Positions 6,699 through 25,037 of a stretch of 35,857 bases of DNA are shown here, one piece after another. Each line of letters opens with the position of its first letter. Within the stretch, counting starts at the first letter, position 1. Origin of the DNA: a virus; the UHGV virus genome UHGV-0063910. The stretch is one strand, 5' to 3'. The notes below the pieces were generated by a model. That model was not told the origin of the DNA, did no database searches, and was given only the letters and a program-made list of their open reading frames with translations. The position numbers and the translations under genes were made by a program.

Positions 6699-7489
6699 TT
6701 ACGCCAGTTGTACAGACACGAACTCATCAGGGTCAGCCAGCAGCATCAGCGGTGCTGACTGAATCATGGTGAACTCACGCGCCGGGTCGCCGGTGGTCAC
6801 CCAGTTTTTCGGGTAACGGGCAGAGGCGTTAATGCCTTCGCGCTGTGCGTCCGCATCCTGAATGCAACCATAGGTGCGCAGACCGCGTGCCTGAGTGTTC
6901 CCCAGCACCATCGTGTTGTCCGGCAGGAAGTTCTTTTTGACGCCGTTTTCCACGTACTGTCCGGAATACACGACGATGGCCACATCGCCATACATTCCCT
7001 TATAAGACACCGCTTTGCCCAGGTCTTTTACCGCTGTCTCCAGCTCGGAATGAGAGCCGCGACGGGTATCCAGCTTCTCCTTGACGGCTTTGAAGGAACG
7101 GAACAGCGCCCAGCCTTTCGGATCAAACACGATGATATTCACCACACCGCTGGCGTTCAGCGCGTAGGCTTCGATATCGTCGGTCGGGTCATACGTGGAC
7201 TTGTCACGCTTGCTCCACTCCGTGCCGCCGGACTGCGTGATGTTATTCGCCTCACTGCGGCCCATATCCACCTCAACCGGATCGAAGGCTTCACCGGTCA
7301 TGGTATATTTGCCCTTAAGCACGGCAGAAACTGCCTGCATCTCTTCGACCTGGGCAATCGCCAGATTTTCATCCAGCATATTCTGCCGAATAATACGGCG
7401 ACGACGGTAAGCCGGGTCAGCCAGGTTCTGCGGATCTTCATCCGGCAGGCGACGCAGGGTCATCTGCGGATTCACCTCATGCTTGGGTT
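6699..7489 (-). pseudogene. E: Major capsid protein E, 3' portion (lambda E codons ~82-341), cut off from its 5' end by the island
   Basis: Translation PKHEVNPQMTLRRLPDEDPQNLADPAYRRRR...DPDEFVSVQLA matches the lambda gpE C-terminal ~260 aa. The reading frame is preceded by a TAA where the island begins. The N-terminal 82 codons are at 18606..18849. Confidence 0.9.
7480..7489. repeat. Left copy of 10-bp direct repeat TGCTTGGGTT flanking the island (putative attL core)
   Basis: Identical 10-mer at 18606..18615. Outer flanks on each side are the two halves of the E reading frame (cctca on the left, tgacata on the right). Confidence 0.8.
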
Positions 7490-7838: not shown

Positions 7839-8600
7839 ATGGATAATTTTCTCAATGAGTTTTCGTCGGATCAGGAACGAGCTAGACATTTAGAGAACTT
7901 ATTAATTAAGGTTGCTCGAGGAGGACCTCGAGATAATAGTGAAAATTATATTTCTCTTAGATCGTACTTTATACAAAACTCTGTATTAAAACTGTTGCTT
8001 CCTGCATTCGTAAGAGAAAACAGAAGCCTAAAAAAATTTTGGGGATTCATACAGCAGAAGTTCCCAACATATAAAGAGCGCGAGTACTTCATCTCAACTG
8101 AATTCACACCGTTATTCGATTATTTCGAAGAGAATCATGCTACGCCTTCGGATGTTCACATAACTGACGGATTAAGAAGCTATGATGAGTGTGGCGTGAA
8201 TGAAGCTTGGGCAAAAGCTCTAGACAGAAGAAACAACGATCCTGAAGGGGCTATTACAGCATCTAGAACATTGCTTGAGACGGTTTGTAAACACATTCTT
8301 GATGATTTAAGTATTACTTATGATAGAAATCTAGACATGAGTGAACTTTATAAACTAACATCCAAAGCACTTAATTTGGCTCCAGATCAGCACGGAGAAC
8401 AGATTTTTAAGCAGATACTTAAAGGTTGCTCATCTGTGGTAAATGGCCTTGGCAATTTACGTAATAAATATGGCGATGCTCATGGCATAGGGAAAAAACC
8501 AATAAAACCTGCTGATCGACATGCTCTTTTAGCTGTTAATCTTGCAGGAAGCATGTCAGTTTTCCTCATTCAAACATGGCAAAACTTGTCAAACAAATAA
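7839..8600 (+). CDS. Abortive-infection-like protein with C-terminal HEPN-type motif (candidate anti-phage cargo)
   Basis: 253-aa ORF with AAGGGG RBS; motif LRNKYGDAHG fits the Rx4-6H HEPN signature. AT-rich composition by eye, at the island edge. Confidence 0.5.
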   Translation: MDNFLNEFSSDQERARHLENLLIKVARGGPRDNSENYISLRSYFIQNSVLKLLLPAFVRENRSLKKFWGFIQQKFPTYKEREYFISTEFTPLFDYFEENHATPSDVHITDGLRSYDECGVNEAWAKALDRRNNDPEGAITASRTLLETVCKHILDDLSITYDRNLDMSELYKLTSKALNLAPDQHGEQIFKQILKGCSSVVNGLGNLRNKYGDAHGIGKKPIKPADRHALLAVNLAGSMSVFLIQTWQNLSNK

Positions 8601-9308
8601 TACCTAATTTTTAACCTCAACTGATTAAATTTCGGTCAAACATCCGTTAGTGAAATACAAGTTGCTATGTAAATACACACCTGCAACTTGTATTACCAAC
8701 CAAGTTTAGCTCCCGATATTACTCATTTCCATTATTTTTCCTTGGCTAGCGCTTCGTCGAACATTTTTACGTGTTATCTTCAAGGTAGATGCTCGCAGAA
8801 ATGATAGTACCACCGATTCGGCGTTGACCATAAGCCAGCAGAACAAGATCCCCTTGGCCGGTTGTATTCGTTACACCACCAAATGCATAGAATGCCTTGT
8901 TATCAGTATCTTGCTTACTCGGCTACCCACAAGATTGTGGGGATAGCATTTGAGCAACGTAGCCTATCGTCACAGAAGCCCCTACTACAAACATCATATT
9001 ACTGGACGCTATACGCGCTCCTGACATTCAGATAGACACAGCAACGCAAATCATTTGCAGCAGACCAGAGCTTTTACTTTCCACAATAACTGGCACAAAT
9101 ACGAATTTCCCGACCCTCAGTAGAGAGCACAAGCGCATCTTTTCCAATATTCTGTTTCCTATGAAAAATACAGAATGTCAGCTCGCGAAATTTACTAGTA
9201 TTCAGATACTTTTCTAATCGAACCTCTCAGTTTAATCGTCATCATTACCTTATAGCTCTGCATTTCGAGTTCCTACAGTAGAGTAAGTGTTCAGTAACCC
9301 AAGTTCAG

Positions 9309-9517
9309 GAGAAAGGAAACGATCATGCCATTTTCAGTCCCAAATAATGCTTTCCATTTCCTTTCTTTTCAGGTGGTGTTTTAAATAAAAACATAAAGTT
9401 ACGGCGAAGAAGAACGGAAACGCCTTAAACCGGAAAATTTCCATAAATAGAGAAAAACTGCGCGCCTTCCGCCCCGTAGTCTGCCGGATTGCCGGAAAGG
9501 ACCCGCCAGCCAGAGCG
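9309..9517. other. Island cos-like site, homologous to the prophage cos
   Basis: About 210 bp alignable with 24828..25037. The ggttacggcgaagaagaacggaaacgccttaaaccggaaaatt block is near-identical. The cosN-like segment (about 9463..9474) differs at several positions and the R1-like hairpin has diverged. Confidence 0.75.
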
Positions 9518-9530
9518 GGCCCTAATTTCA

Positions 9531-9875
9531 TCAACCAATCAACTTATTGCGCCCTTTCAGGGCATTACGCCTGGCGCGTTCAATCTTGAGGCATAACGCC
9601 GCATCAGGTTTTTCCGGTGTGGGTACGAGGCAATAGTTTGATGCTCGCGGGATATTGTTAATCCACTCAACAACCTCGCTTAAATACCAAGCCTTACGCC
9701 CTTCCGTAACCTGCACACGCTCAGGGAACTCTCCACGAGCCTCAAGGTTTAGCAGTGTACGGCGACTCAGGGTTGTAAGTTCCATCACCTGATTCATATC
9801 GACAAGACGCTCGCTTAAGCGCATTTTGTCATCGATATCTAATAGCTCTCGTAGCTGACTATCTCTTTCAATCAT
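9531..9875 (-). CDS. AlpA/MerR-type HTH protein next to the cos-like site (regulator or packaging-specificity factor)
   Basis: 114 aa; segment ELTTLSRRTLLNLEARGEFPERVQV...WYLSEVVEWINN fits the AlpA-family HTH pattern. GAGG RBS; last gene of the E-like/D-like operon. Confidence 0.5.
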   Translation of the reverse strand: MIERDSQLRELLDIDDKMRLSERLVDMNQVMELTTLSRRTLLNLEARGEFPERVQVTEGRKAWYLSEVVEWINNIPRASNYCLVPTPEKPDAALCLKIERARRNALKGRNKLIG

Positions 9876-9884
9876 TCTCGTACC

Positions 9885-10226
9885 TCACACACGTGCCAGC
9901 GGCTGAACAGAAATACCTGAGCCAACAAACGCAGCAACTTTTGCTGATAGTTGTGTTACAGACTCAGGCCAGTTCAGAGCATCAACATTTAAGACGCCGG
10001 TTTTATAAACCTGAGCCTGCGTTTTTGTCGCTGTATCGATTTGTACAGCGGAAACATAAACAGCTTTGCCTGCGCTCGTTCCATCCCATACCACCAGTGC
10101 ACCAGTTGCATCTTCTTGCATCAGTGGCGTAAATGCAGGAATTACCCCTTTATTAGCTGAAAATATCCCCAACGTAGTAACCAGTGCTTCAGTGCCAGCC
10201 ATGAGTTCAGTGTAATGAGTAGCCAT
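9885..10226 (-). CDS. Head decoration protein, lambda gpD-like (island-encoded)
   Basis: 113 aa; aligns with lambda D over TPLM...LVVWDGT..GKAV...YKTG....LNWPE.....AFVGSGIS. AAGGGGGAG RBS; immediately downstream of the E-like gene. Confidence 0.75.
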   Translation of the reverse strand: MATHYTELMAGTEALVTTLGIFSANKGVIPAFTPLMQEDATGALVVWDGTSAGKAVYVSAVQIDTATKTQAQVYKTGVLNVDALNWPESVTQLSAKVAAFVGSGISVQPLARV

Positions 10227-10235
10227 TGCTCCCCC

Positions 10236-11276
10236 TTAACCAATGCGAACGGTAACAAAACGATTGATGCGGGCCGGTATTGGCTGTGGTGCAGAGTGCG
10301 TTTGTACGTACTCAATAGCCGGATCTCCAGGCACAATGTAGTTTTTCGGTGCGAGTTCGGCTTTAGTCAGCCCCATTCGGATTAGCTCCGGATCCTGAAT
10401 GCCACCGTATGCAACGATGCCCTGAAGTGATGTATTGCCAAGAACCATCAAATCAGGATCAAGGAAATATTTTTCTGTTCCGTCCTCGTCGGTATAACGT
10501 CCGCTATACACAACAATAGCCACATCGCCTACGTAACCCTTAAAACTGACGGAATCCCCAAGATTTTTCAGGGCCGTTTCAAGAACGGAATTAGATCCCC
10601 GTCGAGTATCAAGGCAATCTTTTACTGCTTTAAAGGCGCGGTATTTTTTCCATACGTTGCGTCCCATTACGATGATATTTGTAGTCCCTTCGCTGATTTC
10701 TGCGTACTCTTCGATGTCATCATTTGGATCAAATGTTGATAAATCTCTACCGCTCCACTCCGTGCCGCCGGACTGCGTGATAATATTTTGTGGTTTTATA
10801 TTCCAGTCCAGTTCATAACGTTCAATGCCATCGCCCTCAATGATATTTTTCCCCGTTGTGATTGCCTGAACAGCAAGCCATTCAATACGTGCGCGAATGG
10901 CCTGCGCTTGTCTTACCATCGCTCGCTTTATTTTGAAATTGCGTGATGAATATGCATTGAATTGTTCCGGTGATACGCCTGGTTGACGAACGGCTATTTT
11001 ATTTGGGTCTATACTACTTTTTGGCTTCATGTAGCCAGGGCGAATTACTTTTGATTCGTAGCCTTCATCGCGTGATACTTTACTACCAACCATAGGGGAA
11101 CAAAATGCAGCCATCGGGATGTCTGGATCGTCAATAATATCAAGCGCAATATCCCGCGTCTCAAATGTAACGACTCGCTTAAAAAACAGGTTTATAAATA
11201 AAGAGTTAATCTGCCATTGAATATCTTCGGCATTAACAGTCTGTATTAACTCCGCTGGCGAATATAAACCACTCAT
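10236..11276 (-). CDS. Major capsid protein, lambda gpE-like, full length (island-encoded second copy)
   Basis: 346 aa. Conserved blocks ITQSGGTEWS, DTRRGS, GDVAIVVYSG, YG.IQD shared with lambda E and the split prophage E. Divergent from the prophage copy (roughly half of positions differ by eye). Confidence 0.85.
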   Translation of the reverse strand: MSGLYSPAELIQTVNAEDIQWQINSLFINLFFKRVVTFETRDIALDIIDDPDIPMAAFCSPMVGSKVSRDEGYESKVIRPGYMKPKSSIDPNKIAVRQPGVSPEQFNAYSSRNFKIKRAMVRQAQAIRARIEWLAVQAITTGKNIIEGDGIERYELDWNIKPQNIITQSGGTEWSGRDLSTFDPNDDIEEYAEISEGTTNIIVMGRNVWKKYRAFKAVKDCLDTRRGSNSVLETALKNLGDSVSFKGYVGDVAIVVYSGRYTDEDGTEKYFLDPDLMVLGNTSLQGIVAYGGIQDPELIRMGLTKAELAPKNYIVPGDPAIEYVQTHSAPQPIPARINRFVTVRIG

Positions 11277-11461
11277 ATAACCTCTTAATACTTAGTAAAA
11301 GTGTCGTATTAATTTTATCATCTGCCTTGATCGGCATCTTTATGCATTGCTATGCAATATTGTGCAAAGTTTCAATCTTCGTTTATTTATCCGGCGTTAC
11401 GTGTCATTCTGTACAGCGTTACAAGTTCAAAGACATAAATTATTCTCTTTGGTGATGAAAG

Positions 11462-11487
11462 GGTCGGAATATTCCGGCCTTTTTTTT
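11462..11487 (+). terminator. Intrinsic terminator on the plus strand (hairpin + T8)
   Basis: ggtcggaatattccggcc palindrome followed by tttttttt. No plus-strand ORF upstream, so it may end an unannotated small or antisense RNA. Confidence 0.5.
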
Positions 11488-11510
11488 GCGTGGTGTGACG
11501 GACTCAACTG

Positions 11511-11532
11511 ATAAAAGCCGGATTTCTCCGGC
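11511..11532 (-). terminator. Intrinsic terminator for the island replication operon (minus strand)
   Basis: On the minus strand gccggagaaatccggc followed by ttttat, immediately after the ssb-like stop. Confidence 0.5.
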
Positions 11533-11540
11533 CTGTGCGT

Positions 11541-11947
11541 TCAGAATGGAATATTGTCACCGTAGAGATCATCCCCTCCCGCTGGTGGTGTGTTGCCCTG
11601 TGTGCCTGTGGTTTTACGTCTGTTCCCGCCAGGTCGCACCGTTCGCGCACTGATTACGCTGTCTGCGATAACCTGCCAGCGCTGCCGCGTTTCACCGTTC
11701 TGTCCAGTCCACTGGCTCACCTGCATGTTACCCGCCACGCTCAGGAGTTCGCCTTTGTGATGCTTTGCCAGCGTGTCGGCTTGTCTGCCAAACGCCAGGA
11801 CAGATAACCACATCGTCGCCTGACCGTCATCCGACTGCAGGGCAGTGATACCGCCATACGCGCCAGCGTCATGGGGATGCCCTTGCTGGTCTGTTTTGTC
11901 TGCGGGTCGTCCACCAACCTCCCGTAAACTGATATTTGCGCCGTCAT
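11541..11947 (-). pseudogene. ssb: ssb-like gene split over two reading frames (frameshift near 11838..11850)
   Basis: The 11947 frame gives an SSB-like N-terminus (ISVYGRLVDDPQTKQ...). A different frame gives the OB-fold C-half (WLSVLAFG...KGELLSV...WTGQNGETR) and an acidic tail ending DNIPF. Confidence 0.55.
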
Positions 11948-12201
11948 GCTGCCTGCTCTCCGGACTTAATATTGATGGTTGTCACTTCCTCCGCTTCAGC
12001 AATCTCCCGTTCGGTCAGAGTGGCAAAGTTTGCAGCCGCCGTTGTCATGAATGCGCTAATCAGTTCGGGATGTGCTTTCGCGTATCCTTCACCGGCGTTG
12101 CGATCTATTGCCTTAATCGCCACCCTTAGCCAGTGTTCAGCCATATCAAGGGCGCGGTAATGTGGCTTTATATGTTTGTTCAGTTTTCCTGATGTGTGCA
12201 T
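11944..12201 (-). CDS. Hypothetical protein (85 aa), between the ori and the ssb-like gene
   Basis: ORF whose stop overlaps the ssb-like start; weak RBS. Confidence 0.4.
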   Translation of the reverse strand: MHTSGKLNKHIKPHYRALDMAEHWLRVAIKAIDRNAGEGYAKAHPELISAFMTTAAANFATLTEREIAEAEEVTTINIKSGEQAA

Positions 12202-12246
12202 TTTTATTTTTACCCCCTCGTTTAAAAAGTTTTGAAATGTGGTGCA

Positions 12247-12475
12247 CCTCCTCTACCTCTCTACCTAATCATCTTTCAGGTCAGTAATGGCGCGGCTTTC
12301 AGATGGGTAGAGGGCTTTCGGGGCCCTCTACCCATCCTCTACCCGCCCCTCACAAATGACCTTAATCATGGTGGAGGAGGTAGAGGGCTTTTATTTGCCT
12401 TCTACCTGACCCTCTACCTGCTTATCATATTGAATAATATATATTTATTTTCTTTAGGTAGAGGAGGTAGAGGGC
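12247..12475. repeat. Iteron array (about 9 copies of GGTAGAGG/CCTCTACC, both orientations) flanking an AT-rich stretch: putative island origin of replication
   Basis: Iterons at about 12251-12265, 12306-12313, 12325-12344, 12379-12386, 12399-12420, 12457-12473; AT-rich core 12421-12456; immediately 3' of the primase-helicase gene. Confidence 0.75.
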
Positions 12476-12487
12476 TTTTGTCTAAAA

Positions 12488-14239
12488 TTATAAAAACGCG
12501 TCGCAATCCTCTGTTGTTGTCACATTGGTTTGCGTAAGTCCTTTAACCCTGCGCGTTATATATTCACATCCGTAAACTTTCGCCGCTGGCTTCATGGCCT
12601 TGCTGAAATCAGCCACGTTTAGCGGCTTGCTTCTGCCTGCGTATGCCATAAACGCCAGATAGACGCGGTAAAGGCTGTTTCTGGTCGTGTACTTCACGGA
12701 ATCGCCACCGCCACCCATCATCAGGCCGCGCGCTTCCTCCAGAAAATTCAGAAACTGGCAAAACTCAATAACCGGATCCGTCTGTTGCTTTATCGCCAGT
12801 GCTTCTTCACCGTCGCGCTGTTCAATCAACAAATGTCGCGCCTTTTCTGGATCAGCAAAGTTTGCCAGCAATCTGCGGATAATCACGGGGATTTCAGCCG
12901 CGACCTTCTCCGGTAAATCCTTGTCCTTTTCTGCCTCGCTAACGATATTGTCGAAGCGGAAAATTACGCGACGACGTGACACACCTCCGGCCCGTTCGGT
13001 GAATATCATCGGGTTATTGTTGGTAGCCAGCACCACCGCCCTGATTACCTCCGTAAAACGCTTTTCATATTTCGGGTTTATTTCCACGGGGTCGCCGCCC
13101 GTGATTTTCTTGATGCCCGTGCCTTCGCCTGTATATTTCGGCTGGTCAGCCAGGACGATAAGACGTCTCCCGACAACCTGAGCACGCCCACCAGCATCAT
13201 CAAGCGAAGTCATTTCAGCGCTTACCGTGTTCTGTTTCCCTGCCAGAAGGCTGGCTATGTGCGTGAATGTACTCTTTCCGCTCCCGCCGTCTCCGGTGGC
13301 CTCAATAAACATCTGCCAGTCGTACCGGTTCGCCATAATCATGTACAGCGCGGCACATATACGCATCATCTTGCGCGGGTCTTTTCCGGCTGCGTGATCA
13401 AGCCATTTATGAAAGTTTGGCGCGTTGTCGCGGATGTTCTCCCCTGGTGCTGGTGGCGTGTACTCAATGCCGTTGTGCGTGGTGATCCAGTTCTCCGGCG
13501 AGTGCGGGGAAAATTCCCCCGTTTTCAGGTCAAGCACACCATTGGCGAACGGTAGCAAATCACCGGACGGCTCCCCCATGGGGTCGGCAATAACTTTTAA
13601 CGCCTCCACGGCGTTATTAATTGCACGCTTGCTGAATGTGGCCCTGTGCTCTGAATAGATCGCCACCATTTCGCGGCTCAGCTCCATTGTGCTGACCGGA
13701 CACCATACCCCGCCGCGCCATACGTGGACGATTTCACTTTCTGCATGAACACACACACCATCAAAGCGATCGGCAAGTAGTTGTGCACGTTCACTGTCTG
13801 CCATCTGTGAAAGTTGCGCCTTTTGCTTCGTCGGAAGATTAAGCACCAGACTTTCCCCACGCTCGCATTCCTCTTTGAGTCGCGGCAACTGGTCGGATAA
13901 ATCCACGGGGCTGGTGTCAGTAATCCCCGCGTATTCGTGTACGGTCTTCACTCCAGCCACAGCCAATAACGTAACAATCTGCGTCATGCTGTGCTCTGTG
14001 ATATGTCCTGCGCGGTAAACACGCACACACTGACGATCTTCATCAATGATCCGGTAATCGGTGATATTTTTCAGTTGCTCATCAGCCAGCACGACAGGCG
14101 GCACATCGTCGGCGGCAATATGTTTACCCGCCCATTCCTGCCACTCTTTCGCATGGCTCCACGCATCACTACCTGCAAAGATGATTACCTCTGTCAGTCT
14201 GTCGCGTGGCTGTTTTTTTAAGTTCGGTGCCAGTTTCAT
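12488..14239 (-). CDS. Primase-helicase (D5/P4-alpha-like, SF3 helicase with Walker A)
   Basis: 583 aa; Walker A motif GDGGSGKST in the C-terminal half; location between regulatory genes and ori typical of satellite replication modules. Confidence 0.8.
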   Translation of the reverse strand: MKLAPNLKKQPRDRLTEVIIFAGSDAWSHAKEWQEWAGKHIAADDVPPVVLADEQLKNITDYRIIDEDRQCVRVYRAGHITEHSMTQIVTLLAVAGVKTVHEYAGITDTSPVDLSDQLPRLKEECERGESLVLNLPTKQKAQLSQMADSERAQLLADRFDGVCVHAESEIVHVWRGGVWCPVSTMELSREMVAIYSEHRATFSKRAINNAVEALKVIADPMGEPSGDLLPFANGVLDLKTGEFSPHSPENWITTHNGIEYTPPAPGENIRDNAPNFHKWLDHAAGKDPRKMMRICAALYMIMANRYDWQMFIEATGDGGSGKSTFTHIASLLAGKQNTVSAEMTSLDDAGGRAQVVGRRLIVLADQPKYTGEGTGIKKITGGDPVEINPKYEKRFTEVIRAVVLATNNNPMIFTERAGGVSRRRVIFRFDNIVSEAEKDKDLPEKVAAEIPVIIRRLLANFADPEKARHLLIEQRDGEEALAIKQQTDPVIEFCQFLNFLEEARGLMMGGGGDSVKYTTRNSLYRVYLAFMAYAGRSKPLNVADFSKAMKPAAKVYGCEYITRRVKGLTQTNVTTTEDCDAFL

Positions 14240-16370: not shown

Positions 16371-16907
16371 ATGAATCTAAAAAAAATAGCCACAAACACA
16401 AAAAACAAGATAACAGAAACATTTAATAAACTTATATTGGAGGCATCTAAAACCCCCACGCAAGATGAAATTAAAATACTTGAGAGAAGGAGTAAGAAGT
16501 TTAATTACTCCTTTTTCTCATACGCAGTCACAGGAGCTATAATAGTTTTTTGCTCTCAACCATTAATTAAATACGCAAACCCAATACTTATTTTATTGAG
16601 TGGTCTGTTACTGTCTATCATCATTATCATTCTCAGAATGATTTATATTTCACAAGCGAATGCATCATGGACAACCAAAAAACGCTCACATGTACTAGTT
16701 CATTTTCTTTCTGCATGTTTCATAGCATCAACATTGACGTTGCTATATCAGGCTTACGATAATAACATCACACACAAATTGTACTGTAAAAATATACAAC
16801 AACTTATTGAAAAAAGGATAGAAATAGAAAAAAACATCAGCATATTCAGTGGGATGCAATGCACCCCGGTATATGATTACTCTTTATTTGGATTTAATCT
16901 CTTATAA
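16371..16907 (+). CDS. Small membrane protein (about 3 TM helices), AT-rich cargo
   Basis: 178 aa; hydrophobic stretches FFSYAVTGAIIVFCSQPLI, ILILLSGLLLSIIIIILRMIYI, VLVHFLSACFIASTLTLLY; Lys/Asn/Ile-rich; preceded by GGGAG. Confidence 0.5.
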   Translation: MNLKKIATNTKNKITETFNKLILEASKTPTQDEIKILERRSKKFNYSFFSYAVTGAIIVFCSQPLIKYANPILILLSGLLLSIIIIILRMIYISQANASWTTKKRSHVLVHFLSACFIASTLTLLYQAYDNNITHKLYCKNIQQLIEKRIEIEKNISIFSGMQCTPVYDYSLFGFNLL

Positions 16908-16976: not shown

Positions 16977-17213
16977 TTAAACTACCCACTCACCTCGAAT
17001 CCATGCCTGCACTTCTGAAAGACGATATGCAACAGCAGTGGAACCAATCTTGATCCGCTTAGGAAATTTTCCTTCCTTCTCCAGCTTCCAGCGTGTGCTG
17101 TTCGCAAGAGTGGTTAGCTCCCGACATTCTTTCTCACGGATCATTCGGTCAATGTTAGGAATGTACTCCAGACCCTTTTTATCAACAATTGCCATTTTTT
17201 TCATGTTAACCAA
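16977..17213 (-). CDS. alpA: AlpA-family HTH regulator / excisionase-like protein
   Basis: 78 aa; ELTTLANSTRWKLEKEGKFPKRIKIGSTAVAYRLSEVQAWI matches the AlpA pattern; directly downstream of int, overlapping it by 8 nt. Confidence 0.7.
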   Translation of the reverse strand: MVNMKKMAIVDKKGLEYIPNIDRMIREKECRELTTLANSTRWKLEKEGKFPKRIKIGSTAVAYRLSEVQAWIRGEWVV

Positions 17214-18441
17214 CCTTTTGTTTGAGGATTGTCACTTTTGAATCAGCACCTGCGATGCTATTGAGATATGTAGTCCAGAGTTCCAGAGCATCCAGTTTTT
17301 TAGCCATAAACTTACTCCGGTTGTAAACACCTGCCACGCCAGGTAGCGCATGGCCTAACAGTTGTTCTACTACATAAAATTCAACACCGAGATCACTTAG
17401 ATGAGTAGATAGCGTTCTTCTAAGGTCGTGTAGTGACCATTGTTTTTCATGGCCCAAACGTTTACCGATTTTCCCCCCAATCTTGCTTACGCTTTCTCTA
17501 ATTCGCAGACTTCCCAGCACATAACCAGTATGTTTTGTCTCTTCGTGAACATCCGTTACCCACTGTCGTAGAATTTCAGGTACTGGTCTGACGATTTCAA
17601 CACCAGTTTTTGAGTGATCTTTTGGTACAGTCCAAACCCAACTTTCGAGATCCCATTCGCTCCATTCTGATAATCGGGCTTCACTCATTCGACATCCAAA
17701 TACTGTACAAAGCACAAACATTTTTCGCGTGTATTCAGACATTAGTTTTAAATCAGGCTCGACAAAAATTGCCTTCCAGAGCTGGCCGAGTTCGGCTTCA
17801 TCCAGAACCCGATCCCGCTTACCTGCAATCTGCCCCACATCACTCATGCGCAAATCCTTTAAAGCATCACACGTCGCGTACTGGCGTACCCGACAAAAAC
17901 GAAGAGCTAATTTAGTGTCAGAAAAAACATACGCCGCCATAACTGGTGCATTACGTTTAATTCGGTCAAAACAGTCCAGCCATTCATATAGGTGAGTGTC
18001 ATTTACGGGCAAATGACCGATATAGGGAAAGATATGCTTTCGAAATCTGCCAAGCGTTACAGCATGAGTTTTACGACGCACCTTACAGTAATTTTCATAC
18101 CAGTAATTTAGTGCATCCTCCACTGTGACCGGCTTTAAGCGTTCTTCAGCCTGAATCTTAATCTGGATACGCGGATCACGTTTGTCAGCCAACCAACCAC
18201 GGCACTCGTCGCGCTTTTCCCTTGCCTGTTTGAGTGACATATCAGGATATTTACCCAACGTTAGCCAGACCGGAGCAGCCCGGCCACCTGCTAACCTGTA
18301 GAAGAAAACAAAGCTTACAGCCCCTTTAGTACTCACACGAATAGAAAGCCCCTTTCCATCAGCAATGGTGATCTGCTTTTCTCTGGGTTTCCCCAGATAT
18401 CCTTTAAGCGCTTTGTCGCTCAGTTTGTTCTCGCCAGCCAT
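17206..18441 (-). CDS. int: Tyrosine integrase (P4-type)
   Basis: C-terminal catalytic region with HDLRRT...LGH...Y residues; sits next to the right repeat. Start placed at ATG 18439-18441 (MAGENKLSDK...); the track ORF extends to 18492. Confidence 0.85.
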   Translation of the reverse strand: MAGENKLSDKALKGYLGKPREKQITIADGKGLSIRVSTKGAVSFVFFYRLAGGRAAPVWLTLGKYPDMSLKQAREKRDECRGWLADKRDPRIQIKIQAEERLKPVTVEDALNYWYENYCKVRRKTHAVTLGRFRKHIFPYIGHLPVNDTHLYEWLDCFDRIKRNAPVMAAYVFSDTKLALRFCRVRQYATCDALKDLRMSDVGQIAGKRDRVLDEAELGQLWKAIFVEPDLKLMSEYTRKMFVLCTVFGCRMSEARLSEWSEWDLESWVWTVPKDHSKTGVEIVRPVPEILRQWVTDVHEETKHTGYVLGSLRIRESVSKIGGKIGKRLGHEKQWSLHDLRRTLSTHLSDLGVEFYVVEQLLGHALPGVAGVYNRSKFMAKKLDALELWTTYLNSIAGADSKVTILKQKVG

Positions 18442-18605
18442 TTTTAGCCCCAAAAAGCAATACAAGCTGCAATACAGAGATGATTGCAACACACAGATAA
18501 CGAGGAAAATTCAGTGAAAGCACCAGATAAACTTATTCTTTATTATCAAAAGATTAAGTGTAAAAACCAGCAACTACACGAAAGCCTCAGAAAGCCATGC
18601 TAAGT

Positions 18606-18615
18606 GCTTGGGTTT
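18606..18615. repeat. Right copy of 10-bp direct repeat TGCTTGGGTT (putative attR core)
   Basis: Identical to 7480..7489; lies inside the codons KPKH of the E 5' fragment. Confidence 0.8.
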
Positions 18616-18849
18616 GACATAACCCGGCGTAAATTCAGAGGTGGAGCCGCCACGGGATCGGATAACCTCACCGGAAACAATCGGCGAAACGTACAGCGCC
18701 ATGTTTACCAGTCCCGGAATTTGTGAGAGATAGACTTTTTCCGTGGTGAAAGGATAGGTTTCACGGAAAAACAGGCGCAGAAACAGCGGATCGAACTTAA
18801 AGTGATGCTGGGTCGATGCCAGTAATTCTGCAGTTGTATATACAGACAT
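18606..18849 (-). pseudogene. E: Major capsid protein E, 5' portion (codons 1-~82), reads into island DNA
   Basis: MSVYTTAELLASTQHHFKFDPLFLRLFFRETYPFTTEKVYLSQIPGLVNMALYVSPIVSGEVIRSRGGSTSEFTPGYVKPKH matches the lambda gpE N-terminus, then continues as LAWLSEAFV-stop in island sequence (track ORF ends at 18574). Confidence 0.9.
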
Positions 18850-24259: not shown

Positions 24260-24285
<26 letters not shown>

Positions 24286-24805
24286 TCAGCAACCCCAGTA
24301 TCAGTTCATCCAGCGCGGCTGCTTTGTTCATGGCTTTGATGATATCCCGTTTCAGGAAATCAACATGTCGGTTTTCCAGTTCCGGAAAACGCCGCTGCAC
24401 CGACAGGGGGATCCCGTCGAGAATACTGGCAATTTCACCTGCGATCCGCGACAACACGAAAGTACAGAATGCGGTTTCCACCACTTCAGCGGAGTCTCTG
24501 GCATTCTTCAGTTCCTGTGCGTCGGCCTGCGCACGCGTAAGTCGATGGCGTTCGTACTCAATAGTCCCTGGCTGGAGATCTGCCTCGCTGGCCTGCCGCA
24601 GTTCTTCAACCTCCCGGCGCAGCTTTTCGTTCTCAATTTCAGCATCCCTTTCGGCATACCATTTTATGACGGCGGCAGAGTCATAAAGCACCTCATTACC
24701 CTTCCCACCACCTCGCAGAACGGGCATTCCCTGCTCCTGCCAGTTCTGAATGGTACGGATACTCGCACCGAAAATGTCAGCCAGCTGCTTTTTGTTGACT
24801 TCCAT
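24260..24805 (-). CDS. Nu1: Terminase small subunit Nu1
   Basis: 181-aa ORF MEVNKKQLADIFGASIRTIQNWQEQGMPVLRGGGKGNEVLYDSAAVIKWYAERD... essentially the lambda Nu1 sequence. Confidence 0.95.
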
Positions 24806-24827: not shown

Positions 24828-25037
24828 AGAGAAAGGAAACGACAGAGGCTAAAAAGCCCGTTTTCAGCACCTGTCGTTTCCTTTCTTTTCAGGGGGTGTT
24901 TTAAATAAAAACATTAGGTTACGGCGAAGAAGAACGGAAACGCCTTAAACCGGAAAATTTTCATAAATAGCGAAAACCCGCGAGGTCGCCGCCCCGTAAC
25001 GGTCTGGATCACCGGAAAGGACCCGCCAACGACTTTC
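24828..25037. other. Prophage cos site (cosB R elements, cosN with 12-nt cohesive end AGGTCGCCGCCC at 24983..24994, cosQ side)
   Basis: Reverse complement contains GGGCGGCGACCTCGCGGGTTTTCGCTATTTATGAAAATTTTCCGGTTTAAGGCGTTTCCGTTCTTCTTCGCCGTAAC, matching the lambda left end/cos as recalled. Confidence 0.9.

Follow-up and report, generated by a model that had tools for sequence, protein, structure and literature searches.

Why does a satellite island that lacks portal, protease/scaffold, terminase and tail genes carry a major capsid gene and a head decoration gene of its own, inside the capsid gene of the prophage in which it resides? The question is raised by the virus genome UHGV-0063910, a stretch of 35,857 nucleotides (the window, which here always means this whole stretch) that is filled on its minus strand by a lambda-like prophage late region according to gene calls and Pfam. 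The prophage capsid gene E is split by an island of 11,125 bp, and this island carries homologs of lambda E (346 amino acids) and lambda D (113 amino acids), whose products are named E' (the satellite capsid protein) and D' (the satellite decoration protein) throughout. The region that contains them is the conserved late module (E'-D'-HTH-cos, where HTH stands for helix-turn-helix) of a Gram-negative phage-inducible chromosomal island (PICI) in the embedded configuration. An earlier note on this DNA had described the two island genes as diverged homologs of the E and D genes of the prophage (the helper), followed by an HTH gene and a cos-like site, and had stated that helper E is disrupted and that the island has no portal, protease/scaffold, terminase or tail genes. 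Open reading frames (ORFs), Pfam matches and sequence identities agree with this description, the HTH gene and the cos-like site are located at the positions given in the table, the 10-bp integration core is present at both junctions and yields a healed E of 341 amino acids, and a domain scan of the island proteins identified no portal, protease/scaffold, terminase, tail or lysis genes.

The same note regarded an E/D pair carried by a satellite as a distinct solution, a claim that is preceded by three published accounts: the genes c1499 (capsid protein) and c1500 (head decoration protein) of the island EcCICFT073 (Fillol-Salom et al., ISME J 2018, PMC6092414), the capsid gene of the embedded island Eco567.11capE (PMC10111431), and SatelliteFinder, in which a capsid homolog is among the five core PICI components and typical of enterobacterial PICIs (de Sousa 2023, PMC10085698). 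The gene pair and the embedded configuration are thus both already described, and since it is textbook knowledge that E. coli PICIs have these genes, the finding as such is a rediscovery. New in the present analysis are the satellite-specific lineage of the pair, the purifying selection acting on it, and the concentration of its divergence at the contact between gpE and gpD. The question that stands is why a strongly conserved, satellite-specific pair is kept when the sole knockouts made in a relative gave no phenotype.

E' is a complete HK97-fold capsid protein that is colinear with lambda gpE. It matches PHROG 29 (major head protein). Its identity is 41.9% with lambda gpE, 46% with the C-terminal and 33% with the N-terminal fragment of helper E, and 55% with EcCICFT073 c1499, whose crystal structure is PDB 3BQW. 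An AlphaFold2 model of E' (predicted local distance difference test score 85) has template modelling (TM) scores of 0.96 to 3BQW and 0.91 to monomeric gpE (7SJ5), and the alignment with gpE contains gaps of only 1–4 residues and no large insertion or deletion. The comparison of a predicted structure and an alignment with gpE that the earlier note had suggested therefore gave no indication of changed geometry: nothing in the alignment or in the model points to an altered capsid. Identity to gpE varies along the protein, with 15–40% over residues 1–160, which we take to be the N-arm, E-loop and spine helix, and 50–80% over residues 161–260, which presumably represent the A-domain. The position of gpE W308 is occupied by Y or W within the satellite clade; a literature search found no assembly data for gpE W308A. 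A 30-nt patch of the E' gene at 10752-10781 on the minus strand (ATCACGCAGTCCGGCGGCACGGAGTGGAGC, encoding ITQSGGTEWS) is identical in nucleotide sequence to helper and lambda E, whereas E' is ~40–55% identical to these genes at the nucleotide level outside the patch. The corresponding peptide is QAGGAAWS in other genera, and another E. coli allele encodes the same amino acids with five different codons, so that the patch is probably the product of a gene conversion from helper E into E'.

The decoration protein is diverged in a matching way. D' has phage 21 SHP (1TD0) as its best PDB match and is 54% identical to EcCICFT073 c1500 and 42% identical to helper D, with 13–20% identity to helper D in the first 30 residues and 47–60% in the core. 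The satellite D clade has a shortened N-terminus with a conserved motif of its own (Y.EL.AGT...TL) and a conserved C-terminal SVQPL extension. In the expanded lambda shell, the N-terminus of gpD, the E-loop of one gpE and the N-arm of the neighbouring gpE form a four-stranded sheet (PMC5701804), and the divergence from the helper peaks in residues 1–160 of E' and residues 1–30 of D'. The changes in both partners thus appear to be concentrated at the known gpE–gpD contact, which is how a co-evolving cognate pair would look. Furthermore, D' is retained under selection and decoration would be useful only on an expanded, filled capsid, which argues that E' lattices are really built; this is the strongest indirect argument for such lattices.

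Judged by their sequences, E' and D' form a lineage that is confined to satellites. In a set of 50,697 phage genomes, identity reaches no more than 42.3% between E' and the nearest capsid protein and 42.9% between D' and the nearest decoration protein, whereas relatives in bacterial genomes form a graded series from ~50% to 100% identity within the Enterobacterales (Escherichia, Salmonella, Kluyvera, Kosakonia, Cedecea, Scandinavium, Serratia, Edwardsiella, Lelliottia, Klebsiella and others). A scan of genome contigs with the clade alignments returned 4 loci only, the peptide patterns being too specific, and the context of distant members was taken from the contigs that encode them. All contexts examined (loci L001, L004-L012 and L014-L018) are PICIs. 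The island is chromosomal in CFT073 (EcCICFT073 itself, L004), Kluyvera (L005), Superficieibacter (L006), Serratia (L009), Lelliottia (L012) and two E. coli genomes (Z1323CEC0007, L014; L015), and it is embedded in helper E in E. coli (L001 and L016-L018), Cedecea (L007) and Kosakonia (L008). In Edwardsiella tarda it interrupts the portal gene of a lambdoid prophage (L010, 765-12681), and in Salmonella enterica it is located within the tail-gene cluster of a P2-like prophage (L011, 4283-15165). The graded bacterial series, the absence of a close phage relative and the variety of PICI contexts show that the pair is neither a recent capture from a helper nor tied to the interrupted gene. A recent capture of E and D from the helper was considered and rejected on the grounds that no phage protein exceeds 43% identity and that only the 30-nt patch links E' to helper E.

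Several of these loci differ in organization from the window. The Edwardsiella island contains E'-D' without a portal copy and without an HTH gene after D'. The Salmonella island encodes an integrase, an AAA_25 replication protein and E'-D'-AlpA, and is flanked by tail-fibre genes and by a sheath ORF without the N-terminal part. In Lelliottia sp. SL45 (L012, 10001-12752) the chromosomal PICI at fis-dusB has E'-D' followed by a 447-amino-acid S49 peptidase (a gpC-like protease/scaffold) and a Phage_HCP-domain gene adjoining alpA, a head module that is more complete than in E. coli. One E. coli genome (GCA_052627445.1, L015 1766-12941) carries a 100% identical E' in an island between ynfA-like and rspA-like chromosomal genes; the left boundary lies exactly at the att core and fragments of helper E are undetectable, which suggests a secondary chromosomal site or a lost helper. 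Two proteins on short contigs (P0002, 463 amino acids; P0064, 470 amino acids) combine Phage_cap_E and HDPD in single ORFs; as a 9-nt spacer separates E' from D', these fusions are probably artefacts of assembly or of a frameshift.

Selection was analyzed in seven E' genes and the corresponding D' genes, with the ratio of nonsynonymous to synonymous substitution rates (dN/dS) calculated where dS was estimable. Synonymous sites are saturated among the seven E' genes (proportion of synonymous differences, pS, 0.57–0.84), and close relatives of E' have a proportion of nonsynonymous differences (pN) of 0.04–0.15 and a dN/dS of 0.02–0.09. The D' genes of close relatives have a dN/dS of 0.04–0.12, and pairs that include the distant EcCICFT073 genes give 0.08–0.18 for E' and 0.14–0.26 for D'. 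All seven copies compared are intact, and together with the strong purifying selection this indicates that E' and D' are working proteins. A search of 5,426 complete E. coli genomes located this E'-D' type in 395 of them (~7%).

These data are tentatively explained, at a probability somewhat short of even, by a cognate pair from which full-size heads are made, in whole or in part, on the portal, protease and scaffold of the helper. After induction, E' and D' would be expressed late; in the embedded state the pair would probably be transcribed by read-through of the Q-antiterminated late transcript of the helper. Shine-Dalgarno-like sequences precede the E' (AAGAGG), D' and HTH genes, which are separated by 9 nt, and a hairpin resembling a terminator was seen upstream of E' by eye only. 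With the portal, protease and scaffold provided by the helper, E' and D' would then assemble into heads of normal T=7 size, either by themselves or together with gpE and gpD of the helper. Starting at the island cos, the helper terminase would fill these heads with a concatemer that is bounded by cos sites and roughly four islands long (4 x 11.1 kb, or 44.5 kb by arithmetic, ~92% of lambda). The pair would thereby supplement or partly replace the helper shell with the capsid size unchanged, and would be dispensable under laboratory conditions.

A number of observations weigh against this explanation. The usual description of PICI particles is that they consist of phage proteins (PMC6092414), and the presence of E' and D' in particles is inferred rather than directly observed. 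Deletion of c1499 or c1500 left the transfer of EcCICFT073 unchanged (3.8e3 and 8.7e3, respectively, versus 8e3 transductants/ml), transfer of a c1499::cat island with phage 80 reached as much as 1e6 per ml, and c1499 had no phenotype according to the authors (PMC6092414). The island encodes no portal, scaffold or protease and the N-terminal region of E' is its most diverged part, so that the compatibility of E' with gpNu3, gpC and gpB of the helper can only be presumed. The capsid protein of the P2-like prophage that hosts the Salmonella island belongs to a family other than that of E', a placement that is unexpected if E' must co-assemble with the helper capsid protein. Finally, a promoter scan upstream of E' identified fewer promoter-like sites than in shuffled controls. 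A stronger form of the explanation, in which the island is a shell-only capsid-forming satellite and E' and D' are the actual shell of the transducing particle on the helper portal, scaffold, protease and tail, is possible but doubtful. If it holds, the interface between E' and D' would be a private one that prevents the shells of satellite and helper from mixing, and with its native helper the satellite shell might differ in stability or in size, or might escape capsid-sensing defences.

The alternatives assign the pair a different role or none. The earlier note had raised a change of capsid size as one possibility; in the form considered here, E' and D' would force small T=3 or T=4 heads with room for a single island or two, but not for the genome of the helper. 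Capsid homologs do yield small capsids in SaPIbov5 (Ccm) and small heads in Pasteurella PmCI172, and by arithmetic 11.1 kb would fill ~82% of a T=3 head scaled from lambda. However, EcCICFT073, which carries the same module, is packaged with lambda only as phage-sized DNA with no small capsids seen, and its c1499 and c1500 deletions affected neither interference nor transfer (PMC6092414). The DNA of Gram-negative PICIs is packaged as phage-length concatemers of ~45 kb according to Barth et al. (PMC10111431), a length that four island copies approach, so that no size change is needed; as E' is also colinear with gpE, with no insertion or deletion that hints at a changed geometry, size redirection is disfavoured and quite unlikely. 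About equally improbable is that E' mainly supplies capsid protein while the island interrupts helper E, a substitution that the earlier note had also raised and whose possibility is mentioned by Barth et al. (PMC10111431). Helper E is indeed split as long as the island is integrated, but excision of the satellite restores E (PMC10111431), the same module is found in chromosomal PICIs (L004, L005, L006, L009, L012 and L014, as well as L015 with its identical E'), the portal-gene island of Edwardsiella has no copy of the gene that it interrupts, and D' is kept although helper D is intact. The chromosomal and portal-gene PICIs show that replacing the interrupted E cannot be the main role of the pair, and substitution is a side benefit at best.

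A role in conflict, in which E' and D' poison or divert capsid assembly by the helper or by rival lambdoid phages, or serve as decoys for host defences that sense capsids, is unlikely, albeit less so than either of the preceding ideas. PICIs commonly interfere with their helpers and carry defence cargo (the present island has an Abi_C gene), and the putative A-domain, at 50–80% identity to gpE, is similar enough for co-assembly. Deletion of c1499 or c1500 did not restore plaquing by lambda, though (PMC6092414), the interference of EcCICFT073 with lambda being explained by RppA (c1503), and a poison would presumably need no co-evolving decoration protein. Least probable is that the pair is a functionless remnant of a captured block of phage head genes. 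While the missing phenotypes of c1499 and c1500 would fit such a remnant, the selection analysis speaks strongly against it: none of the genera examined has a broken ORF, and dN/dS is ~0.02–0.12 among close relatives with saturated synonymous sites. In addition, the pair recurs in the 395 E. coli genomes and no phage donor is closer than 43%. The preferred explanation thus remains that of a cognate pair acting on helper parts to form full-size heads.

Features of the island and the surrounding prophage in the window (coordinates are positions in the window, strand in brackets)
Feature	Position	Basis or remarks
Helper E, C-terminal fragment	6699-7479 (-)	Pfam Phage_cap_E profile positions 94-328
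att core AACCCAAGCA	7480-7489 (-)	Junction of island and C-terminal part of helper E
Abi_C (abortive infection C-terminal domain), low-GC opposite-strand cargo	7839-8600 (+)	
Island cos, lambda-like	~9300-9480 (-)	Sequence reading and alignment to prophage cos
AlpA-type winged-HTH protein, 114 aa, third gene of the E'-D'-HTH module	9531-9875 (-)	Pfam PF05930 Phage_AlpA
D', head decoration protein of the lambda gpD/phage 21 SHP family, 113 aa	9885-10226 (-)	Pfam PF02924 HDPD, 2.6e-16
E', major capsid protein of the lambda gpE family, 346 aa	10236-11276 (-)	Pfam PF03864 Phage_cap_E, 3.4e-42 over 8-343
ssb, frameshifted into ORFs of 68 aa and 90 aa	11541-11947 (-)	
Primase/replicase, D5-type	12488-14239 (-)	D5_N, DUF5906, Pox_D5
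Other island ORFs (several small ORFs, DUF4222 protein, 85-aa ORF)	(-)	
Predicted membrane protein, 178 aa, low-GC opposite-strand cargo	16371-16907 (+)	
alpA (regulator/excisionase family), adjoins int	16977-17213 (-)	PF05930, 3e-15
Tyrosine integrase (int), at one island end	17206-18492 (-)	Pfam Arm-DNA-bind_3 and Phage_integrase
att core AACCCAAGCA	18605-18614 (-)	Junction of N-terminal part of helper E and island
Helper E, N-terminal fragment	18615-18849 (-)	~80 codons ahead of the core; Phage_cap_E positions 1-78
Helper D, intact, 110 aa	18905-19237 (-)	Pfam HDPD, 8e-20
Prophage Nu1, followed by A, W, B, C, to D	24260-24805 (-)	
Prophage cosN, exact lambda sequence	24983-24994	
Prophage genes after E (FI, FII, Z, U, V, G/T, H)	(-)	

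The island is a PICI of the helper-embedded kind (HE-PICI), of the published 11capE type. It lies in E, flanked by D and FI, on the strand that carries every head and tail gene, and the direct repeat at which E is split is 10 bp long (AACCCAAGCA). Excision of the island in silico at this repeat results in an intact E in which 328 of 341 positions match lambda gpE. The sequence traits of a classical Gram-negative PICI are present (integrase, alpA next to int, primase, capsid homolog, cos and a size within 10–20 kb), as are two traits of an HE-PICI, namely an insertion that is co-oriented within a late gene of the helper and an att identity block whose removal heals E. The genes that define a capsid-forming PICI (cf-PICI), that is its own portal, protease, head–tail connectors and large terminase, are absent from the island. 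The integrase is 99% identical to that of the HE-PICI in E. coli VCSW7 (L001) and 82–86% identical to those of the Cedecea and Kosakonia HE-PICIs in E, and the primase is 82% identical to the EcCICFT073 primase. The possibility that the island is a degraded phage fragment, which the earlier note had named as the alternative to a satellite, was rejected: int, alpA, the D5-type primase and cos make up a complete PICI gene set, the att sites are precise, there are many relatives and the genes are under purifying selection. A TerS or Rpp gene was not found in the present copy of the island. The position of Abi_C is occupied by different cargo in relatives (AF_1680, DUF2971 or DUF262/HEPN). E. coli VCSW7 has an unbroken ssb gene; a frameshift is present in the ssb of the chromosomal PICI that carries the closest E'-D' allele (L014).

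The alignments also indicate that the island is a mosaic (9434-12392 compared with L001, L014 and L016). Its integrase, AlpA and Abi_C proteins are 97–100% identical to those of E. coli VCSW7, but E' is only 84.7% identical (pS 0.57). The closest E'-D' allele among the complete E. coli genomes (95.9% nucleotide identity) is found in the chromosomal PICI at the abgR-smrA locus (L014), whose integrase gene equals the EcCICFT073 integrase gene in length, and the best match among complete E. coli genomes covers 79% of the island at 94% identity. The late module thus seems to have been exchanged between embedded and chromosomal PICIs.

The HTH protein encoded downstream of D' has a single PDB match (AlpA 8C3T, 3.7e-11), and its gene is syntenic and 72–79% identical in Kluyvera, Superficieibacter, Cedecea, Kosakonia and E. 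coli VCSW7. No sequence similarity was detected between this protein and the protein encoded directly after the decoration gene in EcCICFT073. A function as an Rpp or TerS analogue was considered and is unsupported, as there is no PDB match to RppC and AlpA is the sole match. The cos site of the island contains a cosN-like 12-nt overhang (GGGCGGAAGGCG, 9463-9474) that differs from the prophage overhang (GGGCGGCGACCT) at 5 of 12 positions, and its cosB side is nearly identical to that of the prophage, so that helper Nu1 should recognise the island cos. In the islands with a 100% identical E' (L016, L018 and L015; compared stretch in L016 and L018, 10843-11490), similarity to the present island is lost from ~9434, where a Nu1-like terS is located, and cosB differs in the comparable islands of Kosakonia and Superficieibacter that carry terS. 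From these alignments the islands seem to alternate between two states, one with terS and its own cosB and one without terS and with a helper-type cosB.

The closest published system is Eco567.11capE, an 11-kb HE-PICI in prophage 50icd of E. coli NRG857c (Barth et al. 2023, NAR Genom Bioinform, PMC10111431). The passages of that paper on the element describe a 10-bp identity block in a lambda-type capsid gene, a capsid gene of its own and 201 further instances at the site, and propose that co-orientation allows read-through from the helper late transcript; they name the capsid gene and not a decoration gene. For HE-PICIs in general, integrases of a distinct clade that targets late genes are reported, as is a doubled DNA motif on the flanks of att that is said to be unique to them. 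As far as this account goes, the present island agrees with Eco567.11capE in being an 11-kb PICI in and co-oriented with E, with a 10-bp block and its own capsid homolog, and differs from its close relatives by the absence of a Nu1-like terS and the presence of a helper-type cosB. EcCICFT073 is a classical PICI of ~11 kb in which the two genes likewise lie downstream of pri and ssb, in the same order and with the same fold, but it is chromosomal, encodes RppA (c1503), relies on a cosB of its own and differs in the protein that is encoded after the decoration gene. Lambda gpE and gpD and phage 21 SHP belong to the same Pfam families, with the same lengths, folds and gene adjacency and with conserved cores, although identity is ~42% and the satellite gene order (E'-D') is the reverse of that in lambda (D-E).

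Outside the lambda-like proteins, SaPIbov5 Ccm is likewise a satellite-encoded homolog of the major capsid protein of the helper. It belongs to a different sequence family and host and, unlike the closest relative of E' that has been tested (EcCICFT073), gives small capsids; to our knowledge, no decoration protein pairs with Ccm. The cf-PICIs, represented by EcCIEDL933, also encode their own capsid shell protein, but in contrast to the present island, which has only E' and D', they encode portal, protease, head–tail connectors, HNH, TerS and TerL and form small capsids of their own. Should E' and D' turn out to form a shell for the satellite on components of the helper, they would bridge two groups of satellites, one that takes over entire capsids and one that makes complete capsids itself. 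This would be relevant for the engineering of PICI-based delivery particles, and a shell-only satellite would represent an intermediate between the classical PICIs and the cf-PICIs.

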